Below, in pieces: positions 3,169-61,651 of a stretch of 64,000 bases of DNA. Location: the IMG/VR virus record IMGVR_UViG_3300013947_000034, positions 1 to 64,000 of that record. One strand, 5' to 3'. The notes beneath the pieces were generated by a model. That model was not told the DNA's origin and did not search any database. It worked only from the letters and a program-made list of their open reading frames with translations. This DNA is from a virus (lineage: Duplodnaviria > Caudoviricetes). Every line of letters begins with the position of its first letter. Position 1 is the first letter of the stretch. The translations under genes and the position numbers were made by a program.

Positions 3169-3243
3169 ATACCTTTTATCGGGCGGCTCTAGTGACTAGA
3201 GAATAAGCAGGAAAGTTAACTCTAGCCGCCCTGTAAAAGGTAT
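3169..3243. repeat. inverted pair of the 20-bp dispersed motif, 35-bp spacer
   Basis: ATACCTTTTATCGGGCGGCT (3169-3188) and AGCCGCCCTGTAAAAGGTAT (3224-3243). Confidence 0.95.
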
Positions 3244-3312
3244 AGATAATACAAATGTTGTATTCTTAAACAACTTTTGGAATAAAAAGGGTTATATATC
3301 ACCACTTTTTCG

Positions 3313-3320
3313 TACCTTTG
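3313..3320 (+). promoter_or_regulatory. Bacteroidota sigma-A -7 box (TAnnTTTG)
   Basis: TACCTTTG in intergenic DNA. Confidence 0.6.
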
Positions 3321-3428
3321 CAATAGAACATTAGTAATATATTATATATATAGAGCTAATTTTTATGCTTGTAATTAGTTGATAATCAATTAGTTACAAA
3401 CTGGTTTAAGATTTATTAACGACATTTT

Positions 3429-3464
3429 TTCCTCGTTTCTGTGATAGAAACGAGGAATTTTTCT
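3429..3464 (+). terminator. intrinsic terminator-like hairpin
   Basis: Perfect 12-bp stem TTCCTCGTTTCT-gtgat-AGAAACGAGGAA followed by TTTTTCT. Confidence 0.7.
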
Positions 3465-3471
3465 ATCTTTG
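3464..3471 (+). promoter_or_regulatory. Bacteroidota -7 box upstream of the RepL-like gene
   Basis: TATCTTTG about 30 bp upstream of ATG 3502. Confidence 0.65.
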
Positions 3472-3501
3472 CGTTGTCGTTAATATAAGCCAGTTCTTAA
3501 T

Positions 3502-4026
3502 ATGATTGAAGTAATTAATTTTGAGACTATTATGGAACAACATGAAGCTAAGAATAAACTTAAAGATTCAGAAGTTGAAGTAACTACTATTTATGATGTG
3601 TTTAAAGATACTGATAGATACATATCTTCTAAGATACATAAATATTGTTCTAAAACTGCTGAAGATATTGCTGTTTGGATAAGTGAAACTATGTTTCCTT
3701 CTCAAACTAGTATAAGGTTTAATTCTAAAGCTTTAGTTGAATCTAAACAATGTAAAGCTAATACTCCTGATACAATAAGAAAAGCTATTAAAGAACTTAT
3801 TAATGTAGGAGCTATTGTTAAGTGGAAAGATATTGAAGGTTTACCTTCAAACGTGGAATGCGGTAATGAATGGTATTTACTTAATCCTCAAATGATTAAA
3901 GCTATAGGTTGTAAAGGTTTTAAAGAACAAGTAAATACTACTATTAAAGCTATAAGAAATAGTAATCATTATCAAATTCATGAATACTCTGCTATAGTTT
4001 ATAATTTTAAAAATAATAATTTATGA
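3502..4026 (+). CDS. RepL-like winged-helix DNA-binding/replication protein
   Basis: TPDTIRKAIKELINVGAIVK...WYLLNPQMI resembles the RepL-type wHTH; RepL-like genes are known in crAss-like phages. Confidence 0.55.
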   Translation: MIEVINFETIMEQHEAKNKLKDSEVEVTTIYDVFKDTDRYISSKIHKYCSKTAEDIAVWISETMFPSQTSIRFNSKALVESKQCKANTPDTIRKAIKELINVGAIVKWKDIEGLPSNVECGNEWYLLNPQMIKAIGCKGFKEQVNTTIKAIRNSNHYQIHEYSAIVYNFKNNNL

Positions 4027-4604: not shown

Positions 4605-4608
4605 CATT

Positions 4609-4881
4609 ATGAAAAGAAAGATATTACTTATTACAACTAAGAATTGTCTTGGTTGTAGTCTTCAGTTAAAGAATGTACAATCTGCTATAAGTAAATCTTC
4701 TAAGGATATTGAACTTGAGGTTAAAGATTTTACAGAATTGCCTAAAAGGATTATTGCTAAGTACAATGCTTATGATTATCCTTTTACTGTTTATATTATA
4801 GATGATACAGTTAAGTTTAAAAGTACTGGAAGTTGTGCTGTATATCAAATTGTAAGGTATATAGATTTATATTTAAAGTAA
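4609..4881 (+). CDS. thioredoxin/glutaredoxin-like protein
   Basis: CLGC (CxxC) near the N-terminus and a YPFTV motif. Start reassigned to ATG 4609 (MKRKILL), just after the dut stop. Confidence 0.7.
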   Translation: MKRKILLITTKNCLGCSLQLKNVQSAISKSSKDIELEVKDFTELPKRIIAKYNAYDYPFTVYIIDDTVKFKSTGSCAVYQIVRYIDLYLK

Positions 4882-5204: not shown

Positions 5205-5594
5205 GGAATGGCAAATCATAAATTAATATTTTGAAATCCTCTGTAAAGAGAGAACACTAATCTTCTGAATAACTATTCAGTCGTAATATTAAATTGTCTC
5301 AGATAAGCTGAAATGTGGGTCTATTTGAATTTATATCCTTAACTTACAGTCTTATTTCGGTGAATGCTAGCTACCTAAGTGCTTGGCATAATACGTGGGA
5401 AACTCCCACAGCCTGCAAATTAAGCTCTCTGAGATGATTACTCAAATGAAAGGATAAACTATACGGTCATAATAATTTGACCTCTTACATAAGAAATTGA
5501 AATATTCTATTTTTCATAATATCTAAGATTGTTTAGTTAATACTAAGTTGTAGCAGTGGCTACATTAACACTCAGATTAGTTAGAAATTTCTAT

Positions 5595-5632
5595 GAGCAG
5601 CTTGTCCGTGAGGATAGGTTGCTCTTTTTTTT
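5595..5632 (+). terminator. intrinsic terminator ending the + strand block
   Basis: GAGCAGCTTGTCC-gtga-GGATAGGTTGCTC followed by a T run. Confidence 0.85.
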
Positions 5633-5663
5633 AAACATCATCAGCAACACACGATAGAACATT

Positions 5664-5703
5664 AAACAAAAAGAGCTAGACAATCATCACGACTATCTAG
5701 CTC
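5664..5703 (-). terminator. intrinsic terminator ending the - strand block/tRNA transcript
   Basis: On the - strand: GAGCTAGATAGTC-gtgat-GATTGTCTAGCTC followed by TTTTTGTTT. Confidence 0.8.
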
Positions 5704-5860
5704 ACCACCCTATAAATAAATGTTACAATAGTAACATTGTTGCGTTTGAAATTTAATAACTAAATAAACTAATAAACAATCATCACGACTATTCATTAAT
5801 ATAGTCACAAGATTACCATTTTAAACTTTAACTAACAATTTATAAGAACATTATCAGTAG

Positions 5861-5931
5861 CTGCCCTAGGAGGATTCGAACCACCAATAAGAGAACCAAA
5901 ATCTCTTGTGTTACCATTACACTATGGAGCA
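5861..5931 (-). tRNA. tRNA-Gln (anticodon TTG), CCA not encoded
   Basis: The reverse complement folds as a cloverleaf: acceptor TGCTCCA/TAGGGCA, D arm GTGT/ACAC, anticodon arm AGAGA-TTTTGGT-TCTCT, T arm GGTGG-TTCGAAT-CCTCC. Confidence 0.93.
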
Positions 5932-6004
5932 ATGTTTTCACATATATTTCTAACAACTTAAAAACTACTTAAACATGGCATAACGAGAAAACCTCCATCT
6001 GTTG

Positions 6005-6012
6005 CAAAGGTA
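6005..6012 (-). promoter_or_regulatory. Bacteroidota -7 box for the tRNA
   Basis: TACCTTTG on the - strand about 70 bp upstream of the tRNA 5' end. Confidence 0.6.
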
Positions 6013-6099
6013 CAATTATTATTTGTATCTCCAACAAATGAAGGTTTAATTTAAGCATCATTAAGATGATATACTACATCATGCCTTTTATCGGGCGGC

Positions 6100-9000
6100 T
6101 TATTTATCAAACGATGTAGGAACAAATCCAAGTATATTTTGACCGTAATGGTAATAACTATTACTCTTATCAAGAGTAGCAAGATTATTATAAGCTCTAT
6201 AAATAGGAATTTGTCTCATAAGTTTAACCTTAAATTTATTCTCACCTTTATAACGACCAGTAGTATAATTATAATCAAATTCGTCATCAAACATAGCATT
6301 TGCTAGAAGATTAAGACTATTGATAATATCATTAGGCATATTCATCATAGCAATAGGAGAACTCCAAAGCTGTTTAGCATTGTTTGGAAGGAATATTGGA
6401 TTATACATCATACTCTCAGTTGCAAGTTGGTCTGCACTATAAAGCATAAGATTAGGAAGAAACATCTTATCTTTATCTTTATCATCCCAAGCTATATTAG
6501 TACCAATAGCAACCATAATAGCAGCTAAAGCACCAAACACATCACCAGCAGTTCTACGAATAGCAGCTTTCTGATATTCGGGTAGTGCTTCCCAGTTAAC
6601 TCGAATATTCTCAGCAAAGTTTACATAAGCAGCAAAAAGACTTTGAGTTCCCTCAAGTGCTTCAAGTTGTTTATCATCAAGAAGTTTATGTCTTTCGTTA
6701 TATTGACGAATAGGCATTGAAAGGAAATTCATAAGAGCAGGAGCACAACCAACACGAGTATCGCCTGTTTCTTCATTAAAATAACCTTTTCTTCTCCAAT
6801 GTTTAAGAATACCAGGATATATATGTTTATGATATTGCATAACAAGACTACCCCACCAATACTTCTCAAGTTGAGCAGCACCAAGTCTATCATATACACC
6901 ATGTATTTCTTTATTAACAGCAATAACTTTTCCTTTGAACTCTCCAAGAAGACCATAAGCGTCATTTACTTCTCCGTTAGTACTTTGCTTAGAAAGTTGT
7001 TCCATAAGAGAACCATCTTTAAAACCTAGTTTACCGTCAACTAAATCAAGTTGTTCCATGAGAGTAGGATTAGCTTCAAATTCTTCCTTAGCTTTAGTTT
7101 CAAGTTCATTACGTTTAGCAATAAACTCTTTAACTTGTTTATTATTAAGGAATAAATTCTTAAATTCAGTAGCTAAATCTCTTCTACCTCTAGCATATTC
7201 TTTAAGTTGATTTGGGTCAGATTTTACATCATTGACAAATTTCTCAAATTGAGCAGCAAGAGGAGTACCAGCAATAAGTTCTCTCATAGCTTGTTCATGA
7301 CAATGGTTTTTATATTGTGTCCAAGTCATAGCTTGATAAGGAAGTCTACCTTTGTTTTGATAATCATCTACAGGAACAAGTCTATTCTCAAACATCATAG
7401 CAAACATAGCACCATTTTGCATATGATGTTCACCCATAGCATTAGGAGAATACATGAAGTCTCTGAGTTTATTAATAGCGTCACTAGCTTTAAAACTACC
7501 AGTAGGTCTTCCAAGTACCTCATCAAAGTCTACTACGTTCATAAACTTAACAATAGCATCAGCAAGACTAGTACTATCTTCTCTAGCCATTCCTCTCAAG
7601 AAAGATAAAGAAGAAGTATACCACATAAGTTTAGCTTTATTCCAAGAAGCAGTACCAAAATAAGCTTTAGCTACATGTTCGGCAAAAATACCACTACGAC
7701 CAACAGTAACGTTACCAATACCACCAGTAATATTAAGCATCATAAACTTAGCACTAGTAAGACTTTGTGCAATATTAGCACCTTTGGTAAGTTTATTATT
7801 AGGAAGTTTGTATCTATCATAGATAAGTCTATTACCCCAATTAGTAAACTGACCATAAAGTCTTTCATCGTAAGGCTTTTCAGCATAACGAGTAACATCT
7901 TCTGTACTTCTATTAAGGTCTTTTCTAAGATTACTAAAACCTATATTATCGTCAAGTACAGGAGTAGCTTTAATCATATTTTGACCATAATAGAAAAGAT
8001 ACTTATTATCTTGAACAGCATTTTGATGACCAGCAAGTTTAATAAACTGACTAATGCTAGAAACAAAGTCTCTATTAACAAGAGATTGATGTATTGCTTT
8101 ATTGTTCTTTTCAGCAGCATCAAGTCTAGCTTTATGTTCAGTTACAGCTTTATTATACTCTTCATCGGTAGTATATTGGTCTCTCTTTGGTTCAGCAGCT
8201 TTAATCTTATTAATATCTTCGCTATTCTTATTAGTAAATTCTCTACCAATCATAGGAAGTACTGGAGTTTTATCAGTAGAATAACTCATATCAGCATGAA
8301 GACTATTCTTGCCAACAGAACTAATATTAGCGTTCCAACCAGCAAATTCAGCTATTTGTTTACCAAACCATTTAAGGTCATGTTCAGCTTCTTTTGCAGT
8401 AATAGGGAGAAAACCTTGACTAATGATACGACGACTAGTTTTATCTCTAACAATTTTATCTAACGTAGTTTCGATAAGTTTCTTAGCTTGTTTATCAGTG
8501 TCACTAAGAGTTACATTGTTAGCGTATTTCTCATCGTCTATACCACGCTTAAAGTTTTCCGCTTGAGTAGTATTTTCTTTATAATTAGGATTACGATATT
8601 CTTCTTTAGGAACAATATCTAACTGATTATAACTAGCAGCCCAAGTGCCATTAGCATAATTAGGTTTAATACTAGTCTTTTGCCAAATACCTATTGGGTC
8701 GAATTTATGAGTATAAACATTCCATACATGATTACGAGTAAACCATTTATCAAACTCCTCTTTACCTTTAGCTCTAGCAGCTTCCATAGCATCAGTATAA
8801 TAAGGAGTTGTAGTAGTTTCAAGATACTCATTAATAGTAGCAAGAGCTTTAGTTTTAATCTCTGCTTCTTTACGTAAGTCTTTAGCTACTTTCTTATTTT
8901 TCATACCAGTATAGAACTCTTCTTTAAGAGTAAGAGTACCATAAAGGAAACGATTAGGAAGACGAACCGATTTATCATATACATAATTACCATCTTCGTC

Positions 9001-12000
9001 TTTAACTATACGACCTTTATTGTCATATTCAAAATCATATTCCATATTGGCATCTTCCCAAGCCTTGAGATATTCACCACCAATAGTTTTAGCTTTAGCG
9101 TATTCAGTATCAAATTTCTTACTGTATTCAGTATGCATAAATTTACGAATGAATCCACCAACACTAGCACCATTAGCAGGCATATTCTCATCATCAACTA
9201 TAGTCTTCTTTGTATTACGGAGTTTCTCATACAAATCAGCAAGTTTATGAAGGTCTTCAATACTAATTTGTTGTCTGTCGGTAATAGTATTAACTTCTTT
9301 CTTAGTAGTATCATAATAAGGACGAAGAATTTCATTAACTTCATTAACAAGTTTGAGATATTCAACGTTAGCCTTACCATTTTTACTATTAGTAGTGAGT
9401 ATTTGTTGTACTACAGTAGGAAGAGCTTGTCTTTGTTCAGGAGCATTATTAATTAATATTTGCTCATTACCAGCAGAATAAATAGTAGTATTATAACGAT
9501 TAGCTTCATCTTTTCTAATAGCTTCTTGTTCTTCTTCAGTAAATATATCTCCACGAATACGACCTTTACTATCGTAAACTTTCTCACCGTTGGCAATCTT
9601 AGTTTTAATAAGTTTAGCTTTATGAGACATTTGATTATTCTTTGTAACTTTACCTTTAGAAAGAATACCATAAGCTACAGCAATCTCATCGCTAACTTTA
9701 GGGTCTACGTGCCAAGTAGCATTTTGTTCAAGCCATTCTTTAGCTCTTTGATATTTCTCATCATTAGCAAGAACTTCATCAGAAACTTGTTTATTACCAA
9801 AAGCATCACGTTTCTCAGCTCGTTTGATAATGTCAAGTCTCTTATCAAGCTCTTCTTCAAAGCCATCTTTAACATGAGTATCGTTATACTCTTCATTAAT
9901 AGCACGTTGACGTTTGAGATATTGACTGAGTTTTACAGCAGCACCTTGAGAATTTAAAGAAGCTTCTTCATACTTAGCTTGGTCTACAATGATAGGTTTA
10001 CCTTCTTCATCATATCCTTTAGTACCAGGAACTGGATTAGTATCATCATAGATAGGTTTTTCAGTTCCATCTTCAAAATTTATAGTACTCTCAAGTTGAT
10101 GAATACTTCTTCTAAGCCTGCGATATTCAGTTTCATTATCTTCACTAAGAACACCATTAATTCTAAGACGATTAATGTTTCTAATCTGCTCTCTAAGTCT
10201 TGTATATTCAGCAAAAATAGTAGGAGCAGTTTTAAGCATATAATCATCATTATCATACATAAGCTTATAATACTCATCTTTAAACTGTTGATTAAGATGA
10301 GCAATCTTAAAAGCATCATATTCATGTTTAGCTTTTAGATAAGCCATAGGATTATTAATGACATCTTTGCGAGTTTCATTTACTTTATTTCTAAGAGTAT
10401 CTAAATCCTCAACAAATTTGTCAGTATAATCTCTAATAAGTTTACCATTCTTATCAACAAGTTTATCCCAATCTATATGACCAAGAGCTTTAATAGCTTT
10501 TTCAAACTCACGAGCTTCTTTTGCAGCTTGCATATCTTTAGCTCTAATATCAGCAACTATATGTTTACTAATATTTTGAATAAGACTATTACCAGTATCT
10601 TGTAAATCGCCAATCCAAGCATCGCACCAAGTAGTGGCATGATAACCGTTAAGAATATCAACTAAACCGTTTTGAATATTAGGGTCATCAGACCACTTAG
10701 CAACAACTTCTCTAGCGAATCTTTCATTAAGAGCACTAAGATTAAGTTTGTTACGTAAATCACCAATAGTCTTCTTAATATGATTAATAAAATCAATTAC
10801 TTCAGGGTTCTCATCTTTATCGACTACAACATCAAATATAGTACCATATTTATTAATAAGACTGTCTGTATCAAGAAGTAACTTTTGAAAACGTCTTTGT
10901 TCACTAGGATTATTACGAATCATTTCTATAGTTTCAGGAGCAAATATAGAAGCATAAGTTCCATCTTCTTTTCTATAGAATTGGTCAGCATCAGCAATAA
11001 GTTTCTTAGCTGTAGCACTAGTAAATCTATCAATAGCTTCATAAAGTTTTGGAGACATATTAGTATAATCTGTACTAACATTCTCAAAACCGTTATTATT
11101 CATAAATTGAACTTCGCGATAAGCATTAACATCTCCTTCATTTGCTCTACGATTTATATCTGTAAACATATCAAAGTTGTATTCAACAGAAGTACTTTCT
11201 TTATCGTTAGTAGAAGGAACAATTTCTACAACTCTAACTGGATAAGGAATTACTTTACCTTCAGAATCAAATACTACTTTTGTTTCTTTGGCAAAAGCAA
11301 ATTTCTTAGTAACTTCATTATCATTAATTACATCATGAATAGTTTGGAAATTACCAAAAGCTTTACCGATACGATTATAAAGATAGCTATTATTGATAAC
11401 TTGAACTCCTTTAATGCCATTTTTAATAAGATTAATAATCTTACCATAAGCATCACGAGCACCACCTATATCACCAATAGTTCTATCTTTATTAATATCA
11501 AAACCTGTATAAACTTTACCTTTAGCTGCAATAGCTCTTTCATTAGCATACTCTTTACGAAGTTCATCTTTCTCTTCTTTAGTAAGTTGATTACCTTGAA
11601 GTTGATTATCAATAATAGTTCTATAATACATCTCACTATAAGGCGTATTATTAGCTTGATTGACAGAAACAATTCCATGTTCGTTTTCCTCAAGCATACT
11701 TACTGGATAAGCAAATATTACATCACCATGACGAACAGTCTTATAAAGATTTGTAGTATTAACACCACGATTCTTAAAAGTAAGTTTTACATAAGGATTG
11801 ACTCTATCAGTCCAAACATTATAAATACCGTATTTAACTGCAAGTTTAGTATCATCAGGAGCTGTAGTTTCGTCTTGAGCAACTGAAGGTTTGTTATCTA
11901 CAATATCTTCTACAGGGAGGCTTTCAGTTTCTTCTGCAACAGTATTAGTATCAGCAAATTCACTATTAATATCTGATTGTGTAATATCCTCTCTACGAGA

Positions 12001-15000
12001 AGGAACATTGAGGGTTATAACTCCATCAGGAGCACTAAGTTCATTAACCCAAACTTTACCTACTCTTTTCTTCTTTACAGTTCTTTTAGGAACCATACCA
12101 TTATCAGAATGACTTCTTAAATAATCATCACGATAATCATCATAAGTAATATGCTTAAAGTTAGCATCGATTTGACTAAGAAGACTAGTAGCTTCTCCAT
12201 CTTGGTTAGCAAATAAAGTATCATCACGAAGAGTACTATTCTTAATAATTTTATTAACACCATTACGACGCATTTTAAAACCTTCAACTACAAACGCATA
12301 CTTAATAAGGTCTATAGCTGCAAGTTTAACAAGAGGATTCTGACTCTTAGTAGCAGTTTCAAAAAGATTATAAGCAGTCTCAGTATCTACATTATCATCA
12401 TTGAAACGAATAGACTGAGCGGCACAATCTTTATTACCAACACGATAATTATCTTGAAGGTCTACTTTAAGCTTATCAAATATACCAGCATCTTCTGACT
12501 TACTTTGTAACCAAGCAACCTTTTGAGCAGGAGTAAGTTTACCCCAAGCATTAATTTCATCTTGAGTTGGCTCAGTAATATCTTCAACATCAAAATGAAA
12601 TAGTGGACTACCACTAAATCCATAAATACGAAGTCGCTCTTGCAAATCAGTTGTTCCAGTCGATTCTAGACGCCCTGTAGAAGAGTTGATTGTATATCCT
12701 AATCTAATACCATCAGCGTTATTATAAGCAGCACCAATTACATATTTCTCATAATCATTATATTCTTTCTCAGTAAGTCTACGAGGAGTAGGAAGCATTT
12801 TACTAAGAGACTTAATACTGTTTACAAAAGCAGGATTTTGAGTTTCAAAAAGCATACTATTAACTACAGTACTAGTAACAGAAGCGTACTTTAAGAAAGC
12901 ATTAAGAGAAGGATAAGTAGATTCATGATTGTCTTTTACATAATTGTCTTTATCAATCTTACCATCTTTAATAAGTCCAGGATAAATACTTTCAAGAAAA
13001 GGAATCCCATCTTTATTTAGTGCTTTAGCATCGTTACTATTAAGAATATCTTTAACAGTTTCAAATACTTCATTAGTAGCAAATATGGTTTGCTTAGCAC
13101 CAAATTTATCAGGATTACAAACTCTTACAATTTTCTGAATTATATTAGCCAAACGATTAATATCATTATAAGCCATAAGAATTTCAAATTCACGAACAAG
13201 AGAAACATTAGCGGCATTCTTAACATCATTAGCTAATTCTTCTTGGTCAAGAACAATATTGTTATTCTTAATAAAACTATAATTTGTACCAAGCTTTTCG
13301 TTGATAGCTTCAACCGTCATTTTACCTGAATATAAAGAAGAACTATCGATACCAAGTTCTTCAGCTATTTCTTTAAGAGCATCAACTATTGGTTGAGAAG
13401 AGCCTTCACTATAAACAGACTTACCTTTATTGTAAGCATTAACTATACGAGTTATGGCAGGATGCATCATAAACGCAACACCAGTAGTATAATTACTGCC
13501 AATATCAGGGAAAGTTTTATATACAGCAAAAGTAAACTCATTTACATTAGGTACAGCACCTTTCTTTACAGCATCAAGAATATGAGCTGTAGTTTCAGAA
13601 CTATATGCAGTAAGAATAGCATCATCTACATTATGATTATCGTGTGACCAACCAATCATAGTATGGTTGATTGTAACATAACCATCTTTATATTCAACAT
13701 TATCTTCTCCAAAACGTTTAGCTAGAATTTTAGCTTGCTTTGGTGTAGCTTTATATCTAGCACTAATAGCATACTTTTTATCTATAGTAGGTTGAACTTT
13801 ATTACATATAGATACAAAAGTATCACGAGTAACACTAAAAGCTTTAAGTTTAGCGCCACTCATAACATCTTCTTGATATTCTGCTTGGTCAACAAAATCA
13901 TAACAACTACGACCGTTACGAACACTCTTAACAACATTGTTCATAATGTTATCACGTGCAGCAATAATATCTTCAAATTGTGATTGACCAGTATTTTCTT
14001 CAAAAGCTTCATCAGATTGAAGAATACGAAGCATATCATCAAGAATGCGATTGTTACGAGCTTGACGACTATTCTTTTCTTCAACACCATTAGCTTTACT
14101 AAATTCCTCTCTACTAAGAAGATTATTTTCTTCAGCAAGATTTCCTAAAGCATTAGAAGGAACAGTTTCATCGAGATTAAGAGCTTGTCTTACATAATCA
14201 TCATATTCTTTACCAAATGATTCTTTATAAGCAACTTTCTGAATATCTCCGTCTTTATCTATATAAGTATTATGTTGAATACCATATACAGAGTCAATAT
14301 CAAAGTCAGAACCAGTTTGAGCAACCCAATCATCAGGAACTACAATAGTAGAACCTTGAGCGTCATCAGTAAATCCAACCACTTTCATAGCACAAACTGA
14401 TTGCTTACCTTCAGTAGGAATACGATAACCAATAATAGTATCAAGTCCAGCTCTTTGCAGTTGATAAAGAAGACCTCCTACAAGATTTCCGTTTTCGTCT
14501 CTAATTTCATCAGCTTCTTTATAAGTACCATCTTCATTTTTAGCAAAATTGAAATTACTTTTAGGAAGCATAATTTCAATATAACGTTTACCATCAGGAT
14601 GATAACGAAGAGTTTTAGATATAGATAATCTATTCTTTTGATATATAGGAATAACTATATCTTTATTATCTTTTTTATGTTTAATAGTTCTTTCTCCTAC
14701 TTTTTTCCAACTTTTTCCAAGTTTATTTAAAGCATAAACTCCTCCGTCAGAAATACTTCCCCATGTAGATACATTAGCTCCATTAGGAATAGCATTTCTT
14801 AAAGCAGTATATAATTCATTTCGTTCTTCTTTAGTAGAAGGATTTACAGTTTTACCATCTTGTTCAACTGTACCTATCTTTTCAGTTGTAGTTTTAAAAT
14901 GAACAGAATAATTATTATTTTCTTTATCTTTTACTAATTCAAACCAACCTTTTTTCTTCCCTTTTATATAAATTCTTAAAGCTTTACTTTTATAACCAGG

Positions 15001-18000
15001 AGTTTTTTCTCTATCATAAACTTCAACATCAAATTTAGTTTTATTTATACCATCAAGATTGAATGGATTTTCTTTAGTATATTTTTTACTATTAAAACCT
15101 ACATTAGTCACCTGAGCAGCATGAAAACCAGGCAGCTTTTGACGAGTAATAGCGTTATTAAACATAGACTGACAAACATTCTGAGCTTTACTCATCATAT
15201 TAGTCATATATGTAGGCATAATTGTATTAGCTCTTCCAAGTTCAGTATAAGGACTATCTTCATTGAGAGTAAAGAACTCAAGTATATTACTATCAAGACC
15301 TTGACGAAGACATTCTTTACGAAGTTTATTAAAGAATAGTTTCATATCAAGACCTTCAATATTTCCATTAGCATCAAGTTTAATAGAACCATCTTCATTT
15401 GTAGGAATATTAAGTTCCTTAACAAGACTATTAAAACTATCTTTAATATTAGCAACATAAAGTCTAAAGAACTCTTTCTTAACTTCACCTATACTTCCAT
15501 TATCAGGAATATTATCAACAATTTTCTTCATGATTTGAATAGCAGCTTTATTTTCTGCATTCATGTGTTGAGGAGTTTCTTGTTGAGTATAAAGAAAGTT
15601 ATAAGAATAAGTCTCTTTATAATCTTCTACATGATTCTTAAAATCTTGAATGTGAGCATCAGTAACTTCACCAGTCTTTTCATCAAACAAAGTAAGCACT
15701 CCAGCTTTACCAGCTTTAGAAGTTTCTTCAGTATTAAGTTGGTCAATACCATTGTCTTTCATAAGATTATATACTTTCTCAAGGTCAGTACCTTCAATAA
15801 ATCTAGGTACAAGAACTAGTTCAGCATTCTTAATTTGACGAGGAGCATAAGTATTAATCTTATCATTATAAGTCATATCATAATAGAAATTCTTTTGTAC
15901 TTGAACAAAAGTCTTAATATCGTCTACTCTAAGAGGTTTACTTCTATCCATAATACGTTCAATAAGAGGCATATATTTATTAAGTTGACCTCTACCTGCA
16001 ACACGACGAATCCATTCTTCAAAAGTAATATAAGATTGAGCATCGTTCACAGTAGTACCTTGATAACCGTCCATATGCTTATTAGCTTTAGCAATAGCTT
16101 CAGCTTCTGTAAGTTCAGGGTCATGTTTCATATAAACACGAGCAAGTTCGTGAACAATAGGACCGTTTTGAGAAGCTTCTTTAGAAGTTCTTACAGTATT
16201 CTTAATAGTAATACCAACAAATCCAGGACGTTGAGTAACATGAAGACCAAGACCATTAAGTTTATCTTGAATAGCTTGACTATTAAGATAACTCATCTTC
16301 TCTAAGTCGGTAAGCATCATATTTTCATCTTGATAGATATTAAAAGTACTATAAGGAGTACCACTAGCTTGACTTTCCTTAGCACGTTTCAAGAAATCTT
16401 GAGAAGACTTATAAAACTTATCATCACCTTCAAACAAATCATCAAAATAATTATAAGCAAGACGATAATTAAGAGCAAAGTCAGCAACATTATCATCATT
16501 AATAAGTCCAGCTACATCAAGATTCTTAAACTCATCCATACGATTAGCAGAACTATCAATATAATCACTAATAAATTCTGCTATTTTATTATCAATAGCT
16601 TCGGCTTGTTCTTGAGTATGATTAAGTTTAATCTTACCATTCTCATAACCAAAGTGAATAAAACCACCTTTACTACCATTATAAAGACTATCAAAACAAT
16701 CATCAAGAAGTTCTTGACCATAATTGCGAACTTTACCAGTTTGATAATCAGTAATAGTAAACTTATCACTATGGAACATATTACCAACTAAACCATGATT
16801 AGAATCAAGATATTTATCTTTCTTAGTATGATAATCTTTCTTAGTATGATAATTAGCATAAAGTCTACGAGCAGATTCTTCGTCTATACCAAAAGCATTA
16901 TCTGGATTAAATTTAGGTTTACCGTCAGCTTCACGTTGAATCACACCATCATCACCAGTCAAGAATATCATATTAATAGCTTCAGCCATATTAGTCAATT
17001 CTTGATTGAATATCTTTCTAAATTGTTTATAAACGGGATGTTCTCTATTAACTTCATAATTAACTTGAATATCACCAATTCTACCTTGACGATAAGCTTG
17101 TTTACGATACTTATCATAAACCATAGGACGAAGATTATCTCTCATTTCATTGTTGTCAAGAATAGTAGCTTTACCATTCTCAATAACAAACTTATTCATA
17201 CCTTTTACAGGGCGAATAGAACCAGTAATAATATATTTATTTACATTACCTTCTTCGTCAGTAAATTGATAACCAATAGTTGCAGTTTTACCATCATTAC
17301 GAATAATCTCATTCTCATATACAGAACGAGTAATATTGTTACTAGATAAATCTCTAACAATTTGAGCACGGTCAGTACGATTATCTTCAAGCTGAATAAA
17401 TCTAGCTCTAGGATTAGCTTGATTAAATGCTGATTCAGACATACTCTCAAGATGTTCTGCAACATAATTCTTAATATAGTTATCTACATCAACAACATTG
17501 GTTACAGTTCTAATAGGATTACTCTTAGTTACAGCATATCTAGGAGCACGAACAACAAATGTTTTAGGAGCATCAGAAGGAGTTCTCATAAAGTAATTAG
17601 CAAGAGGAATACTGTTAGTTACTCTATCAGCATCAATATTTTTATCACTATTAAAATAGTTGGTAAAAGCAGTATAAACATAATCACCTTTGCTCATTTG
17701 AGAATAAGTAATACCTGCACCTTCATCAGTTTTTACAGCTCCATTAAACAATGCAACATTAAGTAAACCAGAAGCATAATTAGTAACACCATACTTCTGT
17801 TTATCAGCGTCATAATAAAAGAGACCATAGTTAACTACTTTACCATTCTCTTTAGTCTCAATAAGAATGTTACTAAGATTATACTGATTGTTCTTAAACT
17901 TAAATTTGGCAAAGTTGACAAGAGATTCAGGAGCATTGTTACCTAATTCATCAGTAGTAGTCTTAGGACTATTGAGAACTTTAAGCAAATAAGTAATCAT

Positions 18001-20001: not shown

Positions 20002-20026
20002 CCTTGAAATATATTCTGTGAATAAT

Positions 20027-27121: not shown

Positions 27122-27123
27122 AA

Positions 27124-30306: not shown

Positions 30307-30332
30307 AATATTATTAATTTATTTACTAGTTA

Positions 30333-30340
30333 CAAAAATA
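30333..30340 (-). promoter_or_regulatory. Bacteroidota -7 box
   Basis: TATTTTTG on the - strand about 27 bp upstream of ATG 30306. Confidence 0.5.
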
Positions 30341-30342
30341 GC

Positions 30343-30374
30343 AAAACTTCTGATAGTATTAACACTATCAGAAG
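30343..30374 (-). terminator. intrinsic terminator after the 1197-aa gene
   Basis: 11-bp perfect stem CTTCTGATAGT / ACTATCAGAAG with a - strand TTTT tail. Confidence 0.75.
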
Positions 30375-30387
30375 TAATTACTATATT

Positions 30388-40002: not shown

Positions 40003-40689
40003 TTAATATTTAATTGTATTAGGTACTTCATCAGTTTCATGATGATTATTAATTAATTCTCGCTTAGTAATGATTTCTTTAATTTGACCAATCATATCTT
40101 CACTAAGCAACCATTCATTACTATCATAAAGCTTATCTTCATCAGTAAGTTCTCCATTAATTTCAGCTATTTGATTAGGATGCTCAAAAGCACTTTCGAT
40201 AATAATAGCGTCAACTGGAACAACTTTATTAGCAGCACTAGGAAAAAGATAAATATATCCATTAATGTAGTCATAACTAATAGCACCACATAAACCAGGA
40301 ACACTATCTTTAAATCTAGCAGTAGTTTCTTTAATATAAGGAAACTCTCTATTAGTTTTATAACCAACTGAACTAACTCTATCAAAAGGAAGATTATTAG
40401 TAAGTCTAACTGGTCTTGGAACCTTTTGTAAAGTTCTCTTTATCTTATCAAGAGGAAGACCTTCATAATCTTCAGGAAGTTCTATATCACCATCATTAAC
40501 TGTAGTAAGACTAACTCTAAAACGTTGAGTAAGTATTTTATCAACATAAAGATGATTCTCATAACTTCTACGAATAATCTCATTACGAGTATGAATAATA
40601 AGATTACGAATACGATTACGAAGACTATGATTATTAGGTTGACCCATACTATGAGCAATCTCACTAACAAGCATATTTATACTAGCCAT
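40003..40689 (-). CDS. tail tubular/ring protein
   Basis: MASINMLVSEIAHSMGQ...RNLIIHTRNEIIRR N-terminus; GYIY and WLLSEDMI motifs; synteny. Confidence 0.6.
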   Translation of the reverse strand: MASINMLVSEIAHSMGQPNNHSLRNRIRNLIIHTRNEIIRRSYENHLYVDKILTQRFRVSLTTVNDGDIELPEDYEGLPLDKIKRTLQKVPRPVRLTNNLPFDRVSSVGYKTNREFPYIKETTARFKDSVPGLCGAISYDYINGYIYLFPSAANKVVPVDAIIIESAFEHPNQIAEINGELTDEDKLYDSNEWLLSEDMIGQIKEIITKRELINNHHETDEVPNTIKY

Positions 40690-40716: not shown

Positions 40717-40773
40717 AGCCGCCCGGTAAAAGGTATAACAATGTACACATACAATACCTTTTACAGGGCGGCT
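40717..40773. repeat. inverted pair of the 20-bp motif, 17-bp spacer
   Basis: AGCCGCCCGGTAAAAGGTAT (40717-36) and ATACCTTTTACAGGGCGGCT (40754-73). Confidence 0.95.
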
Positions 40774-41296: not shown

Positions 41297-41414
41297 TGTA
41301 TTATTTATTTTACTAGTTTAATTTTGACTGGCACAAATATATTAATAATATATTATTATATAACTACGTTATATATATAATAATATATTTTAATATAATT
41401 GTGTCAGCGTTATA

Positions 41415-43037: not shown

Positions 43038-46000
43038 ATCTTTTATTCTTTAAAAGTTCAACTTCATTTTCTAATTCTCTAACTCTAGCTTTAAGTTTTG
43101 TAACTTCATCATCAACTTCAGTTATAGCACCAAAAGCAAGACTAATAAGTTTAGGATGCCAATAATTAATCTTTAGATAATCATTAGAATCTCTAGTAAC
43201 TATATCGTTAATTAATGGATTATTGACTCGTTGAGCAATAAAACCAATACTATGTTTACCTGTGCGAATATAATCAAATTCATAAGTTCCACCAATAGAC
43301 TTAATAACATTTAAACAATTAAGTTTAGTAACATTACGTTTAAGCCTAATATCAGAAGTTTGATATGCTGTTATACCTCCAGTAGCAAGAATGTTACCAC
43401 TAGCTGTAATACTAGAAGTAAGTAAACTACTTATACCAGCTCTAAGATTAATAGTGCCGCCACTTTGAGCAGAGTTGGCATTAAAGATGGTTCCATCAGC
43501 AATACCAAGATAAATAGTCTTACTACTATGAGTATATTTAAGACCTGCCCATTGATTCCAATCCCAATTAATAGGACCAAATCGAATAGTACCATTACTA
43601 GAACTATTAATAATAAGTTGATTTGCTAAACCACTAATAGGAGTACCATTAATAGTAATTCCATTATTATCTTTAGTAGTACTAATTGTAGAACTTGCAG
43701 ATATAGTACTAGCTCCACTTAATGCTCCACTAATATTACCAGTTCCATCAAAACTTTGCCCCCAAATAGTTCTAGCAGTTTGAAGCTTAGCAGCACTACT
43801 CGAATTACCATCACATCTTGCACTAATATTTGAATAGTTTACAATACAACTATCAGACCCAACAGTTGTACCTTGATATGGGACATTATATAATTTAGTA
43901 GCCGCATCAGACAAACTTGTATAAGCTTCAACATCATGAGTTGAGTTAATTAATTTAAAATTATTATTTATTGAACCACGACTATCTTGTATAGCACGAA
44001 TTACAGTTCCTTGATAAGCGCCAGGAGTTTTAATAAATACATCAACGTAAGCTTTTTTTAGATGAATATAATATCCAGCTTGAATCGAATCTGTTGAATA
44101 ACCTTTACGTACTAACCAGTGTAAAGCAACACCTCCTCCTGCTGTATCACTATTATTTATATCATTAGTTCTAAATTCTACCCTACATAAACCAAACCAT
44201 CCACTAATATAACCTTGACTAATATAAAGTAGAAGAGCGTTATCATTGTAACTGTAATTAGCATCGACATGAGCAATACGTTTAAATGGTTTAGGGTTGG
44301 TATCGCCTAAATTAATAGTACAGAAATTAATTGCTCCATTTAAAGATACATTTCCTGCACCATCAAAATTAACATTTCCAACAAAATCCTTACCAGCTAT
44401 AGATATGTTTCTAGCATTAGTGAGTTTGGTAGCAGAATAAACTTGCATATTACTAACAGTTTTAGTAGTTCCACCAACTGTTAAACTAATACCATTATTA
44501 GAATTAGATAATGCAGTAAGAAGACCATTAGCGTGAATACCGTCAAGTTTATCAGCGTTGGTTGCGGTAGCAGCATTACCACTAATACTAGCACTACTTG
44601 TTATATATCCAGCTCCATTAGTTAATTGATTAGTGTTATTTGGTATAACAAAACTTTTATTACTAGAACCATCATAAGAACCTGAATTATAACCACTCCA
44701 AGATAATGAATAAGGTGATTTAAGAGAAGTAGGAATTTCAGAAGTTAGCGCAAGAGTACCAGTTCTAGCAGGAAGGAATACAGCGTTACTATTATCTCCT
44801 TGTGCTTGAATTCTAACAGAGTAATCAACATTAGCAGTATTACTACAATGAAAATCTATATATTTACCTATTTCAATAACACCATCAATTCCTATTTGAG
44901 GTATTTTACCAAACATGTTTACATTACCAGAACTACCTAAAAAAACAACACTCTTATCAACTTTATTACTTAGTTTACTATCAACATCACTCTTAGTATA
45001 ATAATTACTCAAACTTTGGTGAGATGTAAGAAACGTTGTACCTTTAGTTACAGTTATTGTACTACCTGATTTGCTAACACTTGTAACAGCATTACCAGTT
45101 CCAGTAGTAGTAACCGTTTGCGCACAATTAGCTAGACTTTGATGACTAGTTAAATAAGTTCCTAAATCGACAGCAGTTCCTCCACTAGCTGCAATAGTTT
45201 TAGTAGCACCATTAATTTTTACACTATGAGTATGTCCACTAGAAGCATAACTGCCAGCAGGTTGATAACTGCCTTTTGCTTGATACACACTATCAAGTTT
45301 AGATTTTATATAATTATATATAGAAACAGCTTTACGCTTATGAGGTACATTGACAGCATTAGTATCAGCAAAACCTTTATCACTAGCACAACTAGTAATA
45401 AATTGAGTACCATCAGTTATATCTGCGTTTCCAGTTGCAAGAGTAGCAACAAGGTCAGTAAACGATTGATGTTTAGTTAGATAACCGCTATCGTTAGTAA
45501 ATGCACTAACTTTAGTAGGTCTATCTGTAATGTCTGTCCATTTGTGAGTATGAGCACTAGGAGTAAATGTACTAGGTTTGCCAGTAATATTATTCCAACT
45601 TAAACTAAGTCCACTAAGTTCATCACCAATATTATTAACTCTAGATGTAAGAGAAGCAATACTATTATTGAGTGCTGCAACAGAATAGGCAGAAGCAATC
45701 TTACTTAAATCTTCAGTAGTAAGTTTAATAGCGTTATCATAAGCAATTATGCTTCCGTTAAGTCCACCTCCACCCCCGGTAGAAGGTGTATATGTACCGT
45801 AAGCAGATATACCTCCACTTACTCCAACATTAGCGACATCTTTAGTATTTACATTAGTTATCTCAAGAACATTATCTCCTTTATTTTTAAGAAGTATATT
45901 ACCAATTTGAATTTGACCTCCGTTAGTCGTGTTACCAACATATAAACCAGTAGGAAGATTAGAACTAGCTTCAGTACCCCCTTGAGGAAGAATCTCAAGT

Positions 46001-51048: not shown

Positions 51049-51123
51049 AACCTTATTCTTTAATGATTGCAAATATAGTTTATTAGCATCTTTATTAGTA
51101 TTAACTACAGGATATTTAACAAA

Positions 51124-51161
51124 ATAAAAGTAGCCAACAGTTACAACACTATCAGCTACTT
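51124..51161 (-). terminator. intrinsic terminator ending the small-gene cassette
   Basis: On the - strand: AAGTAGCTGATAGT-gttgta-ACTGTTGGCTACTT followed by TTATTTT. Confidence 0.75.
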
Positions 51162-51178
51162 AATTAAGACTACTACTG

Positions 51179-51618: not shown

Positions 51619-51674
51619 AGCCGCCCGATAAAAGGCATGGAATTGTATACAACTATACCTTCTACAGGGCGGCT
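51619..51674. repeat. inverted pair of the 20-bp motif, 16-bp spacer containing the palindrome TTGTATACAA
   Basis: AGCCGCCCGATAAAAGGCAT (51619-38) and ATACCTTCTACAGGGCGGCT (51655-74). Confidence 0.95.
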
Positions 51675-53593: not shown

Positions 53594-53680
53594 AATTAAA
53601 TTATTAAGATTAATAAAACATATAGTACATTAACTAGTATTTTGTACAATGCAAAGATAAGCACTTTCTGCAATATAAAC

Positions 53681-53718
53681 AAAAAGATGACAACTAGATT
53701 ATTCTCCAGTTGTCATCT
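53681..53718 (-). terminator. intrinsic terminator
   Basis: AGATGACAACT / AGTTGTCATCT 11-bp stem with a - strand TTTTT tail. Confidence 0.75.
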
Positions 53719-53761
53719 AATTAATATAATGATTAGCAAGTATTTATTTACTAGTTATGTA

Positions 53762-54100
53762 CTAAATACACATGGGTTCAACATTTTTATTCTTTAGAGT
53801 TGCTTCAGCAGTAGCGAGACGATAAACTCTTGAAGTATTTAGCCATTTATATGCTAAATCTCTAAGATGTCTTACTGTATGAACAGTTCTATTAAGAATG
53901 CTTGCAATAGTGGTTACACTAAATCCAGCATGAAGCATTTGTTCAACTATCATAGCTCTAGTCATAACTACATTTTCAGCACGACTTTTACCAAGTACAT
54001 CTTTTCTAGTAATATTAAATGTACCATCAGGAAGAGTAGTTCCACAACATTGAATTACATTATCGATTACTCTCCACAATTCTTTCTCTTTATCGTTCAT
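53762..54100 (-). CDS. DnaA C-terminal-domain-like HTH DNA-binding protein
   Basis: ITRKDVLGKSRAENVVMTRAMIV...SVTTIASILNRTVHTVRH mirrors the Bac_DnaA_C signature. Confidence 0.7.
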   Translation of the reverse strand: MNDKEKELWRVIDNVIQCCGTTLPDGTFNITRKDVLGKSRAENVVMTRAMIVEQMLHAGFSVTTIASILNRTVHTVRHLRDLAYKWLNTSRVYRLATAEATLKNKNVEPMCI

Positions 54101-55293: not shown

Positions 55294-55299
55294 AGCTAA

Positions 55300-55351
55300 A
55301 CAATAAAGACGGAAAGCCGCCCTGTAAAAGGTGAGACGAGCAGCATTCCGT
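55300..55351 (-). terminator. intrinsic terminator whose 3' arm includes a 20-bp motif copy
   Basis: On the - strand: GACGGAA-T-GCTGCTC...GGGCGGC-T-TTCCGTC followed by TTTATTGTTT. Confidence 0.7.
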
Positions 55352-55375
55352 CTATCAACTAAAACCTATTGAATA

Positions 55376-58372: not shown

Positions 58373-58392
58373 AGCTTTATAAGTTTAATGAA

Positions 58393-59871
58393 TTACAATA
58401 CACACTTCAACTGGAAGAACTTAGTAGCCTTGTCTACTTGCAAACCGAATGAATTCTTAACCTCATAACGAGAGCAGTCAATATCAGTAGCAAGAGAATT
58501 AGTAGGAACAGCACCCCAAGAAGCAGGAATAGGAGTAAGACCTTTAATCACACCATTAATATAAACTTGACCCTTCTTACGAACCTTACGAATGTTGTTA
58601 TGACCATTATAAGAAGAAGCGTCGAGCATAAATGCTTGATGAGAAGTCATAGGATAACCAGTACGAGGATGTACATCACCATTAGCCTTAGCGTTCTCAG
58701 CAAAAGTACCACGGTCGAGGAATGAAAGATGTTTCAAAGTAATCATATGACCATCAACAGTCTTATACTGACGGAAGTAGTTACCATAAGAAAGACCGCT
58801 AGCAGAAGTTTGAATCATCTTATCACCAAGAGGAGTAACAAAACCCTCACTCTTAGCCTCATTCTTAATAGCACGGTCAAAGTCCTCTACGAAACCTTTA
58901 CCACAAGCAAGAACAACATCCATATTACCAGTGTCTGTATCCTTATCAAGAACATCACCAACAGTACGAACAAGCTTATTGATTGTAAGCTCTTCACCAT
59001 AAGTGTCGTAATTAGATTCACGACAAATCTGTTGCATACCTGCTGTATGAGGAATTGGCTGACCATTATCTTCATCAACAAGAGTAATCTCACCATTGAT
59101 GGTCTTATTATACTCAGCAAACCACAAACGCTCCTCATTCATTACACGTTGCTGTAACTCAAACTGGCGCATCTCCTCATTAATCCAAAGATTAGTAGTA
59201 CCGCCACCAGTAGTCTTAAACTCATAAGTTACAATAGTGTTTGCAATGTTACCTGCAATCTCCTTACTAAAACGATGGAACTCAAGTTGAGAAGTCATCT
59301 TACCAGGTCCCATAGTATTAGTACGATTACCCTTAGAATAACTCTCTGGAATAGTAGGAGCAGTCAAAGACCAACTTTTACCTACAGTCAAGTTCTTAGC
59401 TACATCGACAAAAGCTTGTGGGTTAGGATTTGTAATACGAAGACGATACAAGTAACCACCATGAGCACCAGCACCAAGGTCTTTCATAATACGAACTTGA
59501 GTTACACCATCAGGAGCAATCAAACCATACTGCTCAATAAACCAATGAGTACGGAACTCAACTTCAAAAGTAGCACCACCCTTACCAGGAGTTGTATTAG
59601 CGTTGTTAAACCAAAGTACAGTATCGTTGAACTTCATACGACCCATAGTCTTCCAAGTCCAATCAGTAGTATCAATATCAACTGTACCAGCAGTACCTTG
59701 ACCTTCAGTCAAGAAATTAAGTGGGAATCTATCATCATCCATACCAAAAGTATAGGTGAGCATAGAATTAATCTCACTAGGTTTAGATAACATAAGATGA
59801 GCAATGGTTTCTTCATTAGAATAACCACGGTCTTCATAGTTACCACGTTGTACTTCACGAATTGCGTACAT
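58393..59871 (-). CDS. major capsid protein
   Basis: 492 aa with strongly optimised codons; motifs DDRFPLNFLTEG, YIDTTDWTWK-like segment, MTSQLEFHRFS and GMQQI; position after the portal and scaffold-like genes. Confidence 0.88.
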   Translation of the reverse strand: MYAIREVQRGNYEDRGYSNEETIAHLMLSKPSEINSMLTYTFGMDDDRFPLNFLTEGQGTAGTVDIDTTDWTWKTMGRMKFNDTVLWFNNANTTPGKGGATFEVEFRTHWFIEQYGLIAPDGVTQVRIMKDLGAGAHGGYLYRLRITNPNPQAFVDVAKNLTVGKSWSLTAPTIPESYSKGNRTNTMGPGKMTSQLEFHRFSKEIAGNIANTIVTYEFKTTGGGTTNLWINEEMRQFELQQRVMNEERLWFAEYNKTINGEITLVDEDNGQPIPHTAGMQQICRESNYDTYGEELTINKLVRTVGDVLDKDTDTGNMDVVLACGKGFVEDFDRAIKNEAKSEGFVTPLGDKMIQTSASGLSYGNYFRQYKTVDGHMITLKHLSFLDRGTFAENAKANGDVHPRTGYPMTSHQAFMLDASSYNGHNNIRKVRKKGQVYINGVIKGLTPIPASWGAVPTNSLATDIDCSRYEVKNSFGLQVDKATKFFQLKCVL

Positions 59872-59902
59872 ACTTAAACGAATTAATTAATTAAACAATA
59901 AC

Positions 59903-61267
59903 TTAACTAAACTGAATATCATCAGTTGCATTTTTATTATCTTTAGCTGGTTTAGTAATTCGTACAGTACCACGACCTTTATTTTGTTTAGCTGTTAATC
60001 TGAGAGTTTTAACTTCATGTTCTCTAACAGCCATCTTTACTAGGTCTTCATAAGAACCACCTGTGTACATTAACCAAGCTTGTAGAATTTCATTATTAAG
60101 AGCATCTTCAGGAGTTTGTTTAGCAAGAGCACGTTCATAACCAGTAGCTACATTACCTTGCTCGTCTTTAATACCTCTTGAAAGATAATCATAAAAATCG
60201 TTAGGAGTAACAGTAACCTTTTGTCCATTAACCTCACGAACAAGAGATTCAGGAAGTTGATAATTACCAACCTTACGACCTTCAACGACAGTTTTTACAT
60301 TATTCCAATAAGCAATAGTATCTTGTTCTTGTTGCTTACGTTGAGCTTCAGCTTGTTTAGCAGTCTCTTCATCACGTTTTTTATCAGCAGCTTGAAGATT
60401 AGCTAACTGAGTTTTAGCTTCATCATAAAGACCACCAGAATCTTTAAGATACTTAATGTAATTATCATTGAGAGAAGCATTACCAAACTCTCTAGCAGCA
60501 GCTTTGATGATTGCAATCTGTTGCTCTTCGGACTTTTCATCAACAGTCAAACCACTACGGTCAGGACGTTCACCAAATCCACGAGGGTCACCATTGTTAA
60601 CAGTAAGATAATCAACAAACTGTTTGAGGATTGGATTATCAACAAATACTTTGTTTACAGCAGCTTGAGCAACTTCATTAGACTTGAGTTCAATAGCAGA
60701 ATTAATATAACTCTTAATACCATCTATATCATCAGTAAATTCAACTGGCTTACCTTCTTCATCAGTAATGTCAATATCAAGAGCTTTACGAATATTTTCA
60801 AGATTAACATCAGCACCAGGTTCGTCTACCTGAAGAGAATCAATCCAACCCTTAACGTCTTTAGCTTCTTTAAAAACTTTACCATCCTTATCTACAAGGT
60901 CGCCATTATCAGCAACAGTATAAGTTTGACCTTCAAACTCAACTCGCATACCTTTCTCTAGCTCCCCGGTAGAAGGTGTAGTATCGTTTCCATTATCATC
61001 TTTACCGTCAGCATCTTTAGTATCAGCAGAATGCTCATCACCAGATTTATCATCTTTGTCATCTTTACTGTCGGAAGCGTTACCGTCACCATCTGCGCCT
61101 GTACCGTCACCGTCTTTTCCTTCTCCATCACCTTTGCCGTCTTTACCAGTAATATCGGTAGTATCAGTACCACTGTTACCACCAGTTCCAGTAAAATCAA
61201 TATCGAGTACTGGAGCACAAAGACGAGCATGAGGTTTAAAACCTAGAGTATTACGAAATACAAACAT
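59903..61267 (-). CDS. acidic scaffold-like protein upstream of the MCP
   Basis: D/G/K-rich disordered N-terminus and helical C-terminus; -7 box TACATTTG at 61321-61328 on the - strand. Confidence 0.7.
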   Translation of the reverse strand: MFVFRNTLGFKPHARLCAPVLDIDFTGTGGNSGTDTTDITGKDGKGDGEGKDGDGTGADGDGNASDSKDDKDDKSGDEHSADTKDADGKDDNGNDTTPSTGELEKGMRVEFEGQTYTVADNGDLVDKDGKVFKEAKDVKGWIDSLQVDEPGADVNLENIRKALDIDITDEEGKPVEFTDDIDGIKSYINSAIELKSNEVAQAAVNKVFVDNPILKQFVDYLTVNNGDPRGFGERPDRSGLTVDEKSEEQQIAIIKAAAREFGNASLNDNYIKYLKDSGGLYDEAKTQLANLQAADKKRDEETAKQAEAQRKQQEQDTIAYWNNVKTVVEGRKVGNYQLPESLVREVNGQKVTVTPNDFYDYLSRGIKDEQGNVATGYERALAKQTPEDALNNEILQAWLMYTGGSYEDLVKMAVREHEVKTLRLTAKQNKGRGTVRITKPAKDNKNATDDIQFS

Positions 61268-61651
61268 ACTTTAATTGATTAAATGATTAATAAATAAACT
61301 AACTGTTTTATTAGTTGCTGCAAATGTATTACTATTAATTTAATTACCATTGTTAGCACTCTTTGTTTATAGTTTATTAATAGCATAAGCAAAAGTATTA
61401 TTAATATAATGTATAAGTCTACTAATGTAAACATTTGTAGCACTAGTTATAGCACTAAGTCAATTAGTAGCATTATGTATCAAACCGATGCTCATAGGTG
61501 CTTTCGCTGACAACTCTGTGTCGGGAACATTCGATTTTTGCTACAATCCTTTTACAGGGCGGCTTTAAAATGCTTTCGTGAATAACTTATCACCAACTAA
61601 TCGAAAGTGCCACAGAGAAGAATTTAAAATATTAAATTTGCTATCAATATA

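Follow-up and report, generated by a model that had tools for sequence, protein, structure and literature searches.

A dispersed 20-base word on both strands of an Intestiviridae phage genome: a possible phage-private recognition site, of predicted function, for a strand-specific DNA enzyme or initiator

The localized nick motifs of T5, phiKMV-like and tf/LUZ24-like phages are short asymmetric consensus sequences, present in a handful to 14 copies per genome, in coding as well as non-coding DNA (PMC3517423). They are compared here with a 20-base word that is scattered over the genome of a crAss-like phage, known from the virus record IMGVR_UViG_3300013947_000034 (85,018 bp, completeness estimated at 88%, coding fraction 91%), of which bases 1-64000 constitute the window, that is, the whole stretch of DNA in which the word was originally noticed. 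The phage belongs to the crAss family Intestiviridae, and its nearest named record is cr8_1 (Obtuvirinae, genus Fohxhuevirus). Our tentative reading, a prediction as to function, is that the word is private to the phage and that a DNA enzyme or initiator encoded by the phage recognizes it in a strand-specific manner. Similar to the nick motifs, it has an asymmetric consensus, occupies similar positions in related phages and varies in consensus with the lineage (PMC3517423). However, the nick motifs all lie on one strand, whereas the word lies on both, with ten copies on each in the window and close neighbours on opposite strands; it is also longer (16-22 bp, compared to about 9 bp in tf) and is known from sequence alone.

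The DNA uptake sequences (DUS) of Neisseriaceae and the uptake signal sequences (USS) of Pasteurellaceae share with the word equal orientations, a spacing more even than random, intergenic dyad pairs, a reading-frame bias, placement on poorly conserved residues and lineage dialects (PMC2817400). Nevertheless, they belong to competent bacteria and reach hundreds to thousands of copies, whereas the word belongs to a phage, with about 20-30 copies, and its exact 16-mer occurs at chance level in bacterial genomes, mis-binned crAss-like contigs aside. We know of no uptake step in the phage life cycle. Chi sites, which are recognized by RecBCD or AddAB, are 5-8 nt long, host-owned, over-represented in the host chromosome and biased by the direction of replication. 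They resemble the word in being strand-specific on DNA, in having a similar per-strand density and in being tolerated in genes, but the word is 16-22 nt long, phage-private, without such a bias and not a bacterial repeat. Stoperators of L5 and Cluster A phages form sets of 20-30 asymmetric sites per genome, and their consensus evolves together with the protein that reads it. Both the number of asymmetric sites per phage genome and the co-evolving consensus are similar here; however, stoperators follow transcription and serve the repressor of a temperate phage, unlike the word, which is found in both orientations relative to transcription.

The enrichment of the word is real. Its core, CTTYTAYMGGG, has 20 exact matches in the window, ten per strand and at 17 loci, whereas dinucleotide-preserving shuffles of the window average 0.19 and reach 3 at most. 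The original prediction had counted at least 20 copies with this distribution and had expected about 0.1-0.2 in 64 kb, and both figures were reproduced, as were its coordinates. When up to three mismatches to the 20-mer are allowed, 18 matches are found in the window and none in the shuffles, and 27 sites score at least 23 when the full genome (85,018 bp) is scanned with a weight matrix, besides one additional weak match at genome position 70433 (score 14.9). Under a stricter pattern, 12 copies of the genome are on the plus strand and 14 on the minus strand. At about 22-23 bp, the conserved block is compact, running from the C just 5' of the 20-mer to the AGA just 3' of it, and the comparison of the flanks around the copies found no second conserved block near them. 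In addition, all 16 GGCGGCT heptamers of the genome fall within the motif. The word takes the form ATACCTTTTACAGGGCGGCT in the studied genome, and its general form is a pyrimidine run followed by A, Y, N, GGGG, R and R. The copies in the window are the following:

3169-3188, plus strand: exact consensus type (ATACCTTTTATCGGGCGGCT), left arm of a tight inverted pair, 9 nt past a stop codon.
3224-3243, minus strand: right arm of that pair, across a 35-nt spacer; the RepL-like gene at 3502 lies 258 nt downstream.
6081-6100, plus strand: single and intergenic, overlapping the stop codon of the gene for a 4611-aa RNA polymerase.
11903-11922, plus strand: in a gene, antisense, SLPVED, within a lineage-specific insert of a giant gene.
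12668-12687, minus strand: in a gene, sense, NSSTGR.
17198-17217, plus strand: in a gene, antisense, IRPVKGM, within a lineage-specific insert.
20274-20293, minus strand: in a gene, sense, TPSTGR, in an acidic linker of a 2364-aa gene.
21180-21199, plus strand: exact 20-mer in a gene, antisense, SRPVKGM.
23514-23533, minus strand: in a gene, sense, IPSTGG, with the motif also at the matching position in the relatives G002 and G004.
28196-28215, plus strand: in a gene, antisense, IRPIKGV.
31325-31344, plus strand: exact 20-mer in a gene, antisense, SRPVKGM, its position kept in relatives at 32% protein identity.
33387-33406, minus strand: exact 20-mer in a gene, sense, in a third frame as YLLQGG, which is YLLRGG in relatives according to their own dialect.
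40717-40736, minus strand: 27 nt before the gene for tail ring protein 2, as one arm of a tight inverted pair with a 17-nt spacer.
40754-40773, plus strand: other arm of the 40717 pair, 16 nt past the stop codon of the upstream gene.
45770-45789, minus strand: in a gene, sense, TPSTGG, with a degenerate 3' end.
51619-51638, minus strand: arm of a tight inverted pair with a 16-nt spacer, 17 nt upstream of an ATG.
51655-51674, plus strand: other arm of the 51619 pair, 8 nt past a stop codon.
55315-55334, minus strand: single and intergenic, in a hairpin loop; relatives retain the stem with a different sequence.
60960-60979, minus strand: in a gene before the major capsid gene, TPSTGE, its position kept in 37 distinct related sequences, with rare codons fixed.
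61545-61564, plus strand: single, within 286 nt of intergenic DNA; a copy of a second repeat family lies 14 nt away.

Over the whole genome, 13 of the 27 copies are intergenic and 14 lie within genes, where few frames are used: antisense copies encode S/I-R-P-V/I-K-G (SLPVED at 11903) and sense copies mostly P-S/F-T-G. The peptides listed in the original prediction were read correctly (SRPVKG, IRPIKG and SLPVED antisense; (T/I)PSTG and NSSTG sense; YLLQGG at 33387). These sites are located in linkers, at the edges of lineage-specific inserts or at junctions between variable and conserved regions, and the peptides that they encode stand out as identical islands within proteins whose identity between relatives is otherwise 32-46%. 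That the constraint is on the DNA and not on the peptide had been claimed from the use of several frames, and synonymous freedom, examined at the shared site 60960, bears this out. Over 37 distinct related sequences, the threonine is encoded by ACG in 35 and the glycine by GGG in all 37, codons that account for 2.8% of the Thr and 2.1% of the Gly codons genome-wide, and the remaining invariant glycines of the alignment are encoded by GGT, GGA or GGC. Because these rare codons are fixed at the site, codon choice shows a constraint that acts on nucleotides, and an explanation at the level of the peptide is poorly supported.

Conservation of the DNA in relatives, on which the original prediction had hinged, was found at matching positions despite the low protein identity. 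With position 12 of the motif left free, 24 copies are counted in G002, 21 in G004 and 19 in G027, many of them at matching positions. Each lineage has its dialect: the studied genome uses CTTTTAC(A/C)GGGCGGCT, the closest clade CTTTTACGGGG(C/G)GG and most other relatives CTTCTACGGGGGAGCT, while ΦcrAss002 carries at least 18 copies of CTCCTTTAYGGGGGAA and the prototype crAssphage (Carjivirus communis) carries 31 copies of TCCTCYACGGGG. Regarding position 12, it is G in one of the 27 copies of the studied genome, in nearly all copies of G002 and in all copies of G004, matching sites included; at window position 33387, this G changes Q to R in relatives. A genome-wide switch of this kind is consistent with a trans-acting reader and its sites evolving together. 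The comparisons thus show a word that is under strong selection in the family and is kept at matching positions across subfamilies, with one dialect per lineage. A search for the reader by means of relatives devoid of the motif failed, since the apparent non-carriers, G032 and G034, proved to have other dialects. In the first 50 kb of crAss001 (Steigviridae, NC_049977.1), the Intestiviridae word was not found. The same 50 kb hold seven copies of YCCTTCTGGAG, in both orientations, which may represent an analogous signal of Steigviridae or a Pro-Ser-Gly peptide effect.

In bacterial genomes (596 Gb), the commonest 16-mer of the word occurs in 86 stretches, which is the chance level by our own estimate, and the only contigs of the bacterial database with multiple copies are phage-sized ones, binned into unrelated genomes. 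Moreover, five genomes with a mutual identity of about 93% have nearly all sites in common, and the differences between these sites are point mutations alone. These results show a word that is neither a bacterial-genome repeat nor recently mobile. A selfish mini-element of the REPIN/MITE kind, spreading by transposition, is therefore extremely improbable. REP/REPIN elements do resemble the word in having inverted doublets able to form hairpins, such doublets exist here, and the copy at genome position 76095 resembles an insertion of 15-20 bp relative to relatives. However, those elements are intergenic, bacterial and spread by RAYT transposases, whereas 14 of the 27 copies here lie in genes, where they are kept despite the codon cost, at stable, matching sites that change by point mutation; no transposase was seen among the proteins scanned, and the sole HNH endonuclease is lineage-specific. 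The identity of a mobile element was rejected on these grounds. As a separate observation, at least 12 copies of the word occur in JAFRAK010000011.1, a contig of 93,767 bp filed with an assembled genome of a 'Bacilli bacterium', so that this contig is probably a crAss-like phage genome binned by mistake; contigs in Acholeplasmatales and Coprovivens bins resemble it. The word and its dialects may help to recognize and classify Intestiviridae contigs, including those mis-binned into bacterial genomes. In agreement with the original prediction, which knew of no published description of the motif, none was found in the literature searched, either by topic or by the literal words.

The arrangement of the copies on the two strands is not random. 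Over seven genomes, 41 of the 44 pairs of neighbours with gaps under 2.3 kb are on opposite strands (9 of 9 in the studied genome), whereas the orientation across longer gaps is near-random (58 of 100). The smallest same-strand gap in the studied genome is 2.9 kb (label-shuffle P=0.0004), and the coefficient of variation (CV) of the per-strand spacing is 0.37 (P=0.0002), similar to that of the prototype crAssphage (0.38, P=0.0002), at a density of about one copy per 6-7 kb on each strand. The loci themselves are also spaced more evenly than random in three of the four genomes first tested (CV 0.47-0.64, compared to 0.94). Within pairs, the spacers range from 16 to 51 nt in the studied clade, and the arms in crAssphage are separated by 26 to about 260 bp, so that the arms behave as separate sites and do not form one dimer site. 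The balanced orientation on which the original prediction relied stands as a count (10 and 10 in the window); however, the copies are not merely balanced, as close neighbours are on opposite strands. Together with the spaced same-strand copies, this points to strand-specific reading rather than to plain orientation-free binding.

The word is probably a signal in the DNA for a trans-acting factor of the phage. Regarding the event at the word, strand-specific nicking or priming is possible but held with considerable doubt. In this mechanism, every copy would be an asymmetric, strand-specific site of its own, read independently of the others by a phage-encoded protein that would start there a strand-specific DNA event (a nick, a primer, or the loading of an initiator or helicase) during replication, recombination or packaging. 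A tight inverted pair would accordingly serve both directions, and the hairpin that it forms would be a by-product. Several points weigh against this mechanism. All known localized nick motifs are on one strand (PMC3517423). At the tight pairs, the two strands would be nicked at a distance of 36-55 bp from each other. Known primases recognize about 3 nt rather than 16-20. In addition, selection against nearby direct repeats, in a phage that encodes RecT and an exonuclease, could account for the opposite-strand neighbours, or for part of this pattern, whatever the role of the word; in the family, RecT-type recombination is annotated in crAss002 and crAssphage. Furthermore, the RepL likeness of the candidate reader, described below, consists in the studied genome of weak tblastn matches and of language-model and structure look-alikes, and a RepL-like gene was not found in ΦcrAss002.

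A serious rival, though a somewhat unlikely one, is that the copies are passive sites for a sequence-specific double-stranded DNA-binding protein (a regulator, roadblock or genome organizer) with no strand-specific chemistry, comparable to the extra iterons of plasmids or to L5 mycobacteriophage stoperators. An asymmetric block of about 22 bp with a high information content would suit such a protein, the genome-wide dialects fit its co-evolution with the sites, and the pairs that adjoin RepL-like genes resemble autoregulation or an origin. Nevertheless, passive binding predicts neither the same-strand spacing nor the opposite-strand close neighbours, the copies have no orientation bias relative to transcription, unlike stoperators, and the variable pair spacing argues against a dimeric operator.

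The other serious rival, which we consider distinctly unlikely, is a private mark of self, comparable to Chi or to DNA uptake sequences. A phage machine that translocates along DNA (for example, a helicase-nuclease or an enzyme of recombination or packaging) would read it on one strand, so that phage DNA would be spared or favoured and host DNA lacking the word would not. The per-strand density is near that of Chi in E. coli, the word is absent as a repeat from bacterial genomes, and the phage encodes a Gam-like protein, a PD-(D/E)XK nuclease and an SF1 helicase; however, known Chi sites are far shorter and belong to the host, and we know of no sequence-regulated phage helicase-nuclease. The equal orientations, even spacing, dyad pairs after genes, frame bias and poorly conserved residues are as in uptake sequences (PMC2817400). 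Homology breakpoints add little, since in the five close genomes 26 alignment ends fall at motifs, compared to 13.3 expected, an enrichment that is only about two-fold and is confounded by intergenic location. An identity as recombination junctions, another suggestion of the original prediction, was rejected because this enrichment is weak.

It is unlikely that the Intestiviridae genomes carry, on both strands, a private signal for a novel kind of DNA handling whose reader belongs to no known family, examples of which would be many strand-specific start or nick sites for replication, or self-marking against a phage nuclease. If true, Intestiviridae, including the most abundant human gut phage, would use a novel mode of phage DNA handling. 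The replication and DNA packaging modes of crAss-like phages are unknown (review PMC10136315). These phages form the most abundant phage family of the human gut, and a strand-specific signal every few kb, kept inside essential genes at a codon cost, would mark a core DNA process. As the cultured ΦcrAss002 carries the word, the question is open to direct bench testing.

Regarding transcription, the orientation of the motif is independent of its direction, with 14 sense and 13 antisense copies in the whole genome. The intergenic antisense copies lie mostly 0-40 nt past stop codons, and the intergenic sense copies about 15-71 nt ahead of start codons, a placement that, together with a length and compactness like those of single-subunit polymerase promoters and dialects that recall the T7, T3 and SP6 promoters, could suggest a transcriptional signal (promoter, pause or terminator) recognized by the virion RNA polymerase or by a different transcription factor of the phage. 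This explanation is poorly supported and very unlikely, because half of the copies point against genes and many are inside long genes, whereas T7-type promoters are co-oriented with genes and located upstream of them. In a study of the crAss-like phage phi14:2, early transcripts had no common motif and the middle promoters were host-type, and the motif does not match the crAss promoters described there. Moreover, promoters of the Bacteroidota type (TAnnTTTG) and terminators formed by a hairpin plus a U run are present in other intergenic regions of the studied genome, the motif not being part of them, so that an identity as a host-type promoter or terminator was rejected. The original prediction had argued against ordinary promoters from the balanced orientation, and its argument holds. 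As for these host-type elements themselves, TAnnTTTG -7 elements were seen in 3160-3501, 5220-6099, 30307-30387, 41297-41414, 51049-51178 and 53594-53761, some right after hairpin-plus-T terminators, and such promoters occur in both the structural and the replication gene blocks.

An RNA element, in which hairpins would serve processing, stability or termination, is likewise poorly supported and highly improbable. The three tight pairs (3169/3224, 40717/40754 and 51619/51655) fold into hairpins with stems of about 20 bp (-49 to -61 kcal/mol), and the copy at 55315 lies in the loop of a hairpin whose stem persists with other sequence in relatives. However, most copies are single, partnerless and in either orientation. 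The three long hairpins have no clear U run; intrinsic terminators combine a G+C-rich hairpin with such a run. A G-U wobble test in the tight pairs across relatives did not consistently favour the coding strand, and an Rfam search matched the motif to no RNA family. The hairpin at 55294-55375, in which a T-rich run follows the motif-bearing loop, has the stem AGACGGAA/TTCCGTCT in the studied genome and GGGAATG..GCTCTA / TAGAGC..CATTCCC in relatives, the structure being kept while the sequence differs. The sole RNA gene found by the searches for tRNA genes and RNA families is a tRNA-Gln (anticodon TTG) at 5860-5931, inside an 880-nt stretch free of open reading frames that separates two convergent gene blocks.

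Concerning a reader of the strand-specific sites, the RepL-like proteins are the best candidate, although a weak one, and the sole candidate with any support. The gene in the window is the following:

3502-4026, plus strand: RepL-like winged-helix gene, putative candidate reader.

It is preceded by the 3169/3224 pair, both in the studied genome and in G004. A paralogue of this gene, 35% identical, is located at genome positions 71532-72047 and adjoins a RepL-like gene at 72049-72606, and a motif copy at genome position 71509 sits after both. In crAssphage, both Pfam-positive RepL genes have a motif pair 263-630 bp upstream, an association whose chance is about 0.001 by our own estimate, given five tight pairs in 97 kb. 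The proposal of the 3502 gene as the reader, made in the original prediction, thus gained from the motif pairs upstream of RepL genes, but lost from the weak RepL likeness and from the result in ΦcrAss002. In total, the studied genome contains up to three RepL-like winged-helix genes.

The second candidate of the original prediction, the IHF-like gene at 39061, did not stand. It is a homologue of a prototype crAssphage gene annotated as IHF; however, the homologue of a crAssphage 'IHF subunit' beside it, at 40003-40689, matches the Pfam family CrAss_Ring_2 (tail ring protein 2), so that its IHF label looks outdated, and no match to the HU/IHF domain PF00216 was found. The label of 39061 is doubtful for both reasons, and HU/IHF was rejected as the reader. 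The third candidate of the original prediction, the HTH protein encoded at 53762-54100, would be a further putative reader. Meanwhile, a free-standing I-HmuI-like HNH endonuclease (HNH_3 and NUMOD domains) is encoded at genome positions 68790-69530 on the minus strand. Enzymes of the I-HmuI family nick long asymmetric sites. This one is probably a mobile homing endonuclease, because close relatives are without it, and it was rejected as a shared reader since it is absent from G002, G004, G027 and the prototype crAssphage. No repressor or integrase was recognized among the approximately 40 proteins scanned.

Finally, a second dispersed word, GATAAGTTATTCA (near-palindromic TGATAAGTTATTCAC), occurs at window positions 20019, 36315, 49834 and 61579 and at genome position 77221, mostly in long intergenic regions, its copy at 61579 being the one beside the main motif, at a distance of 14 nt.

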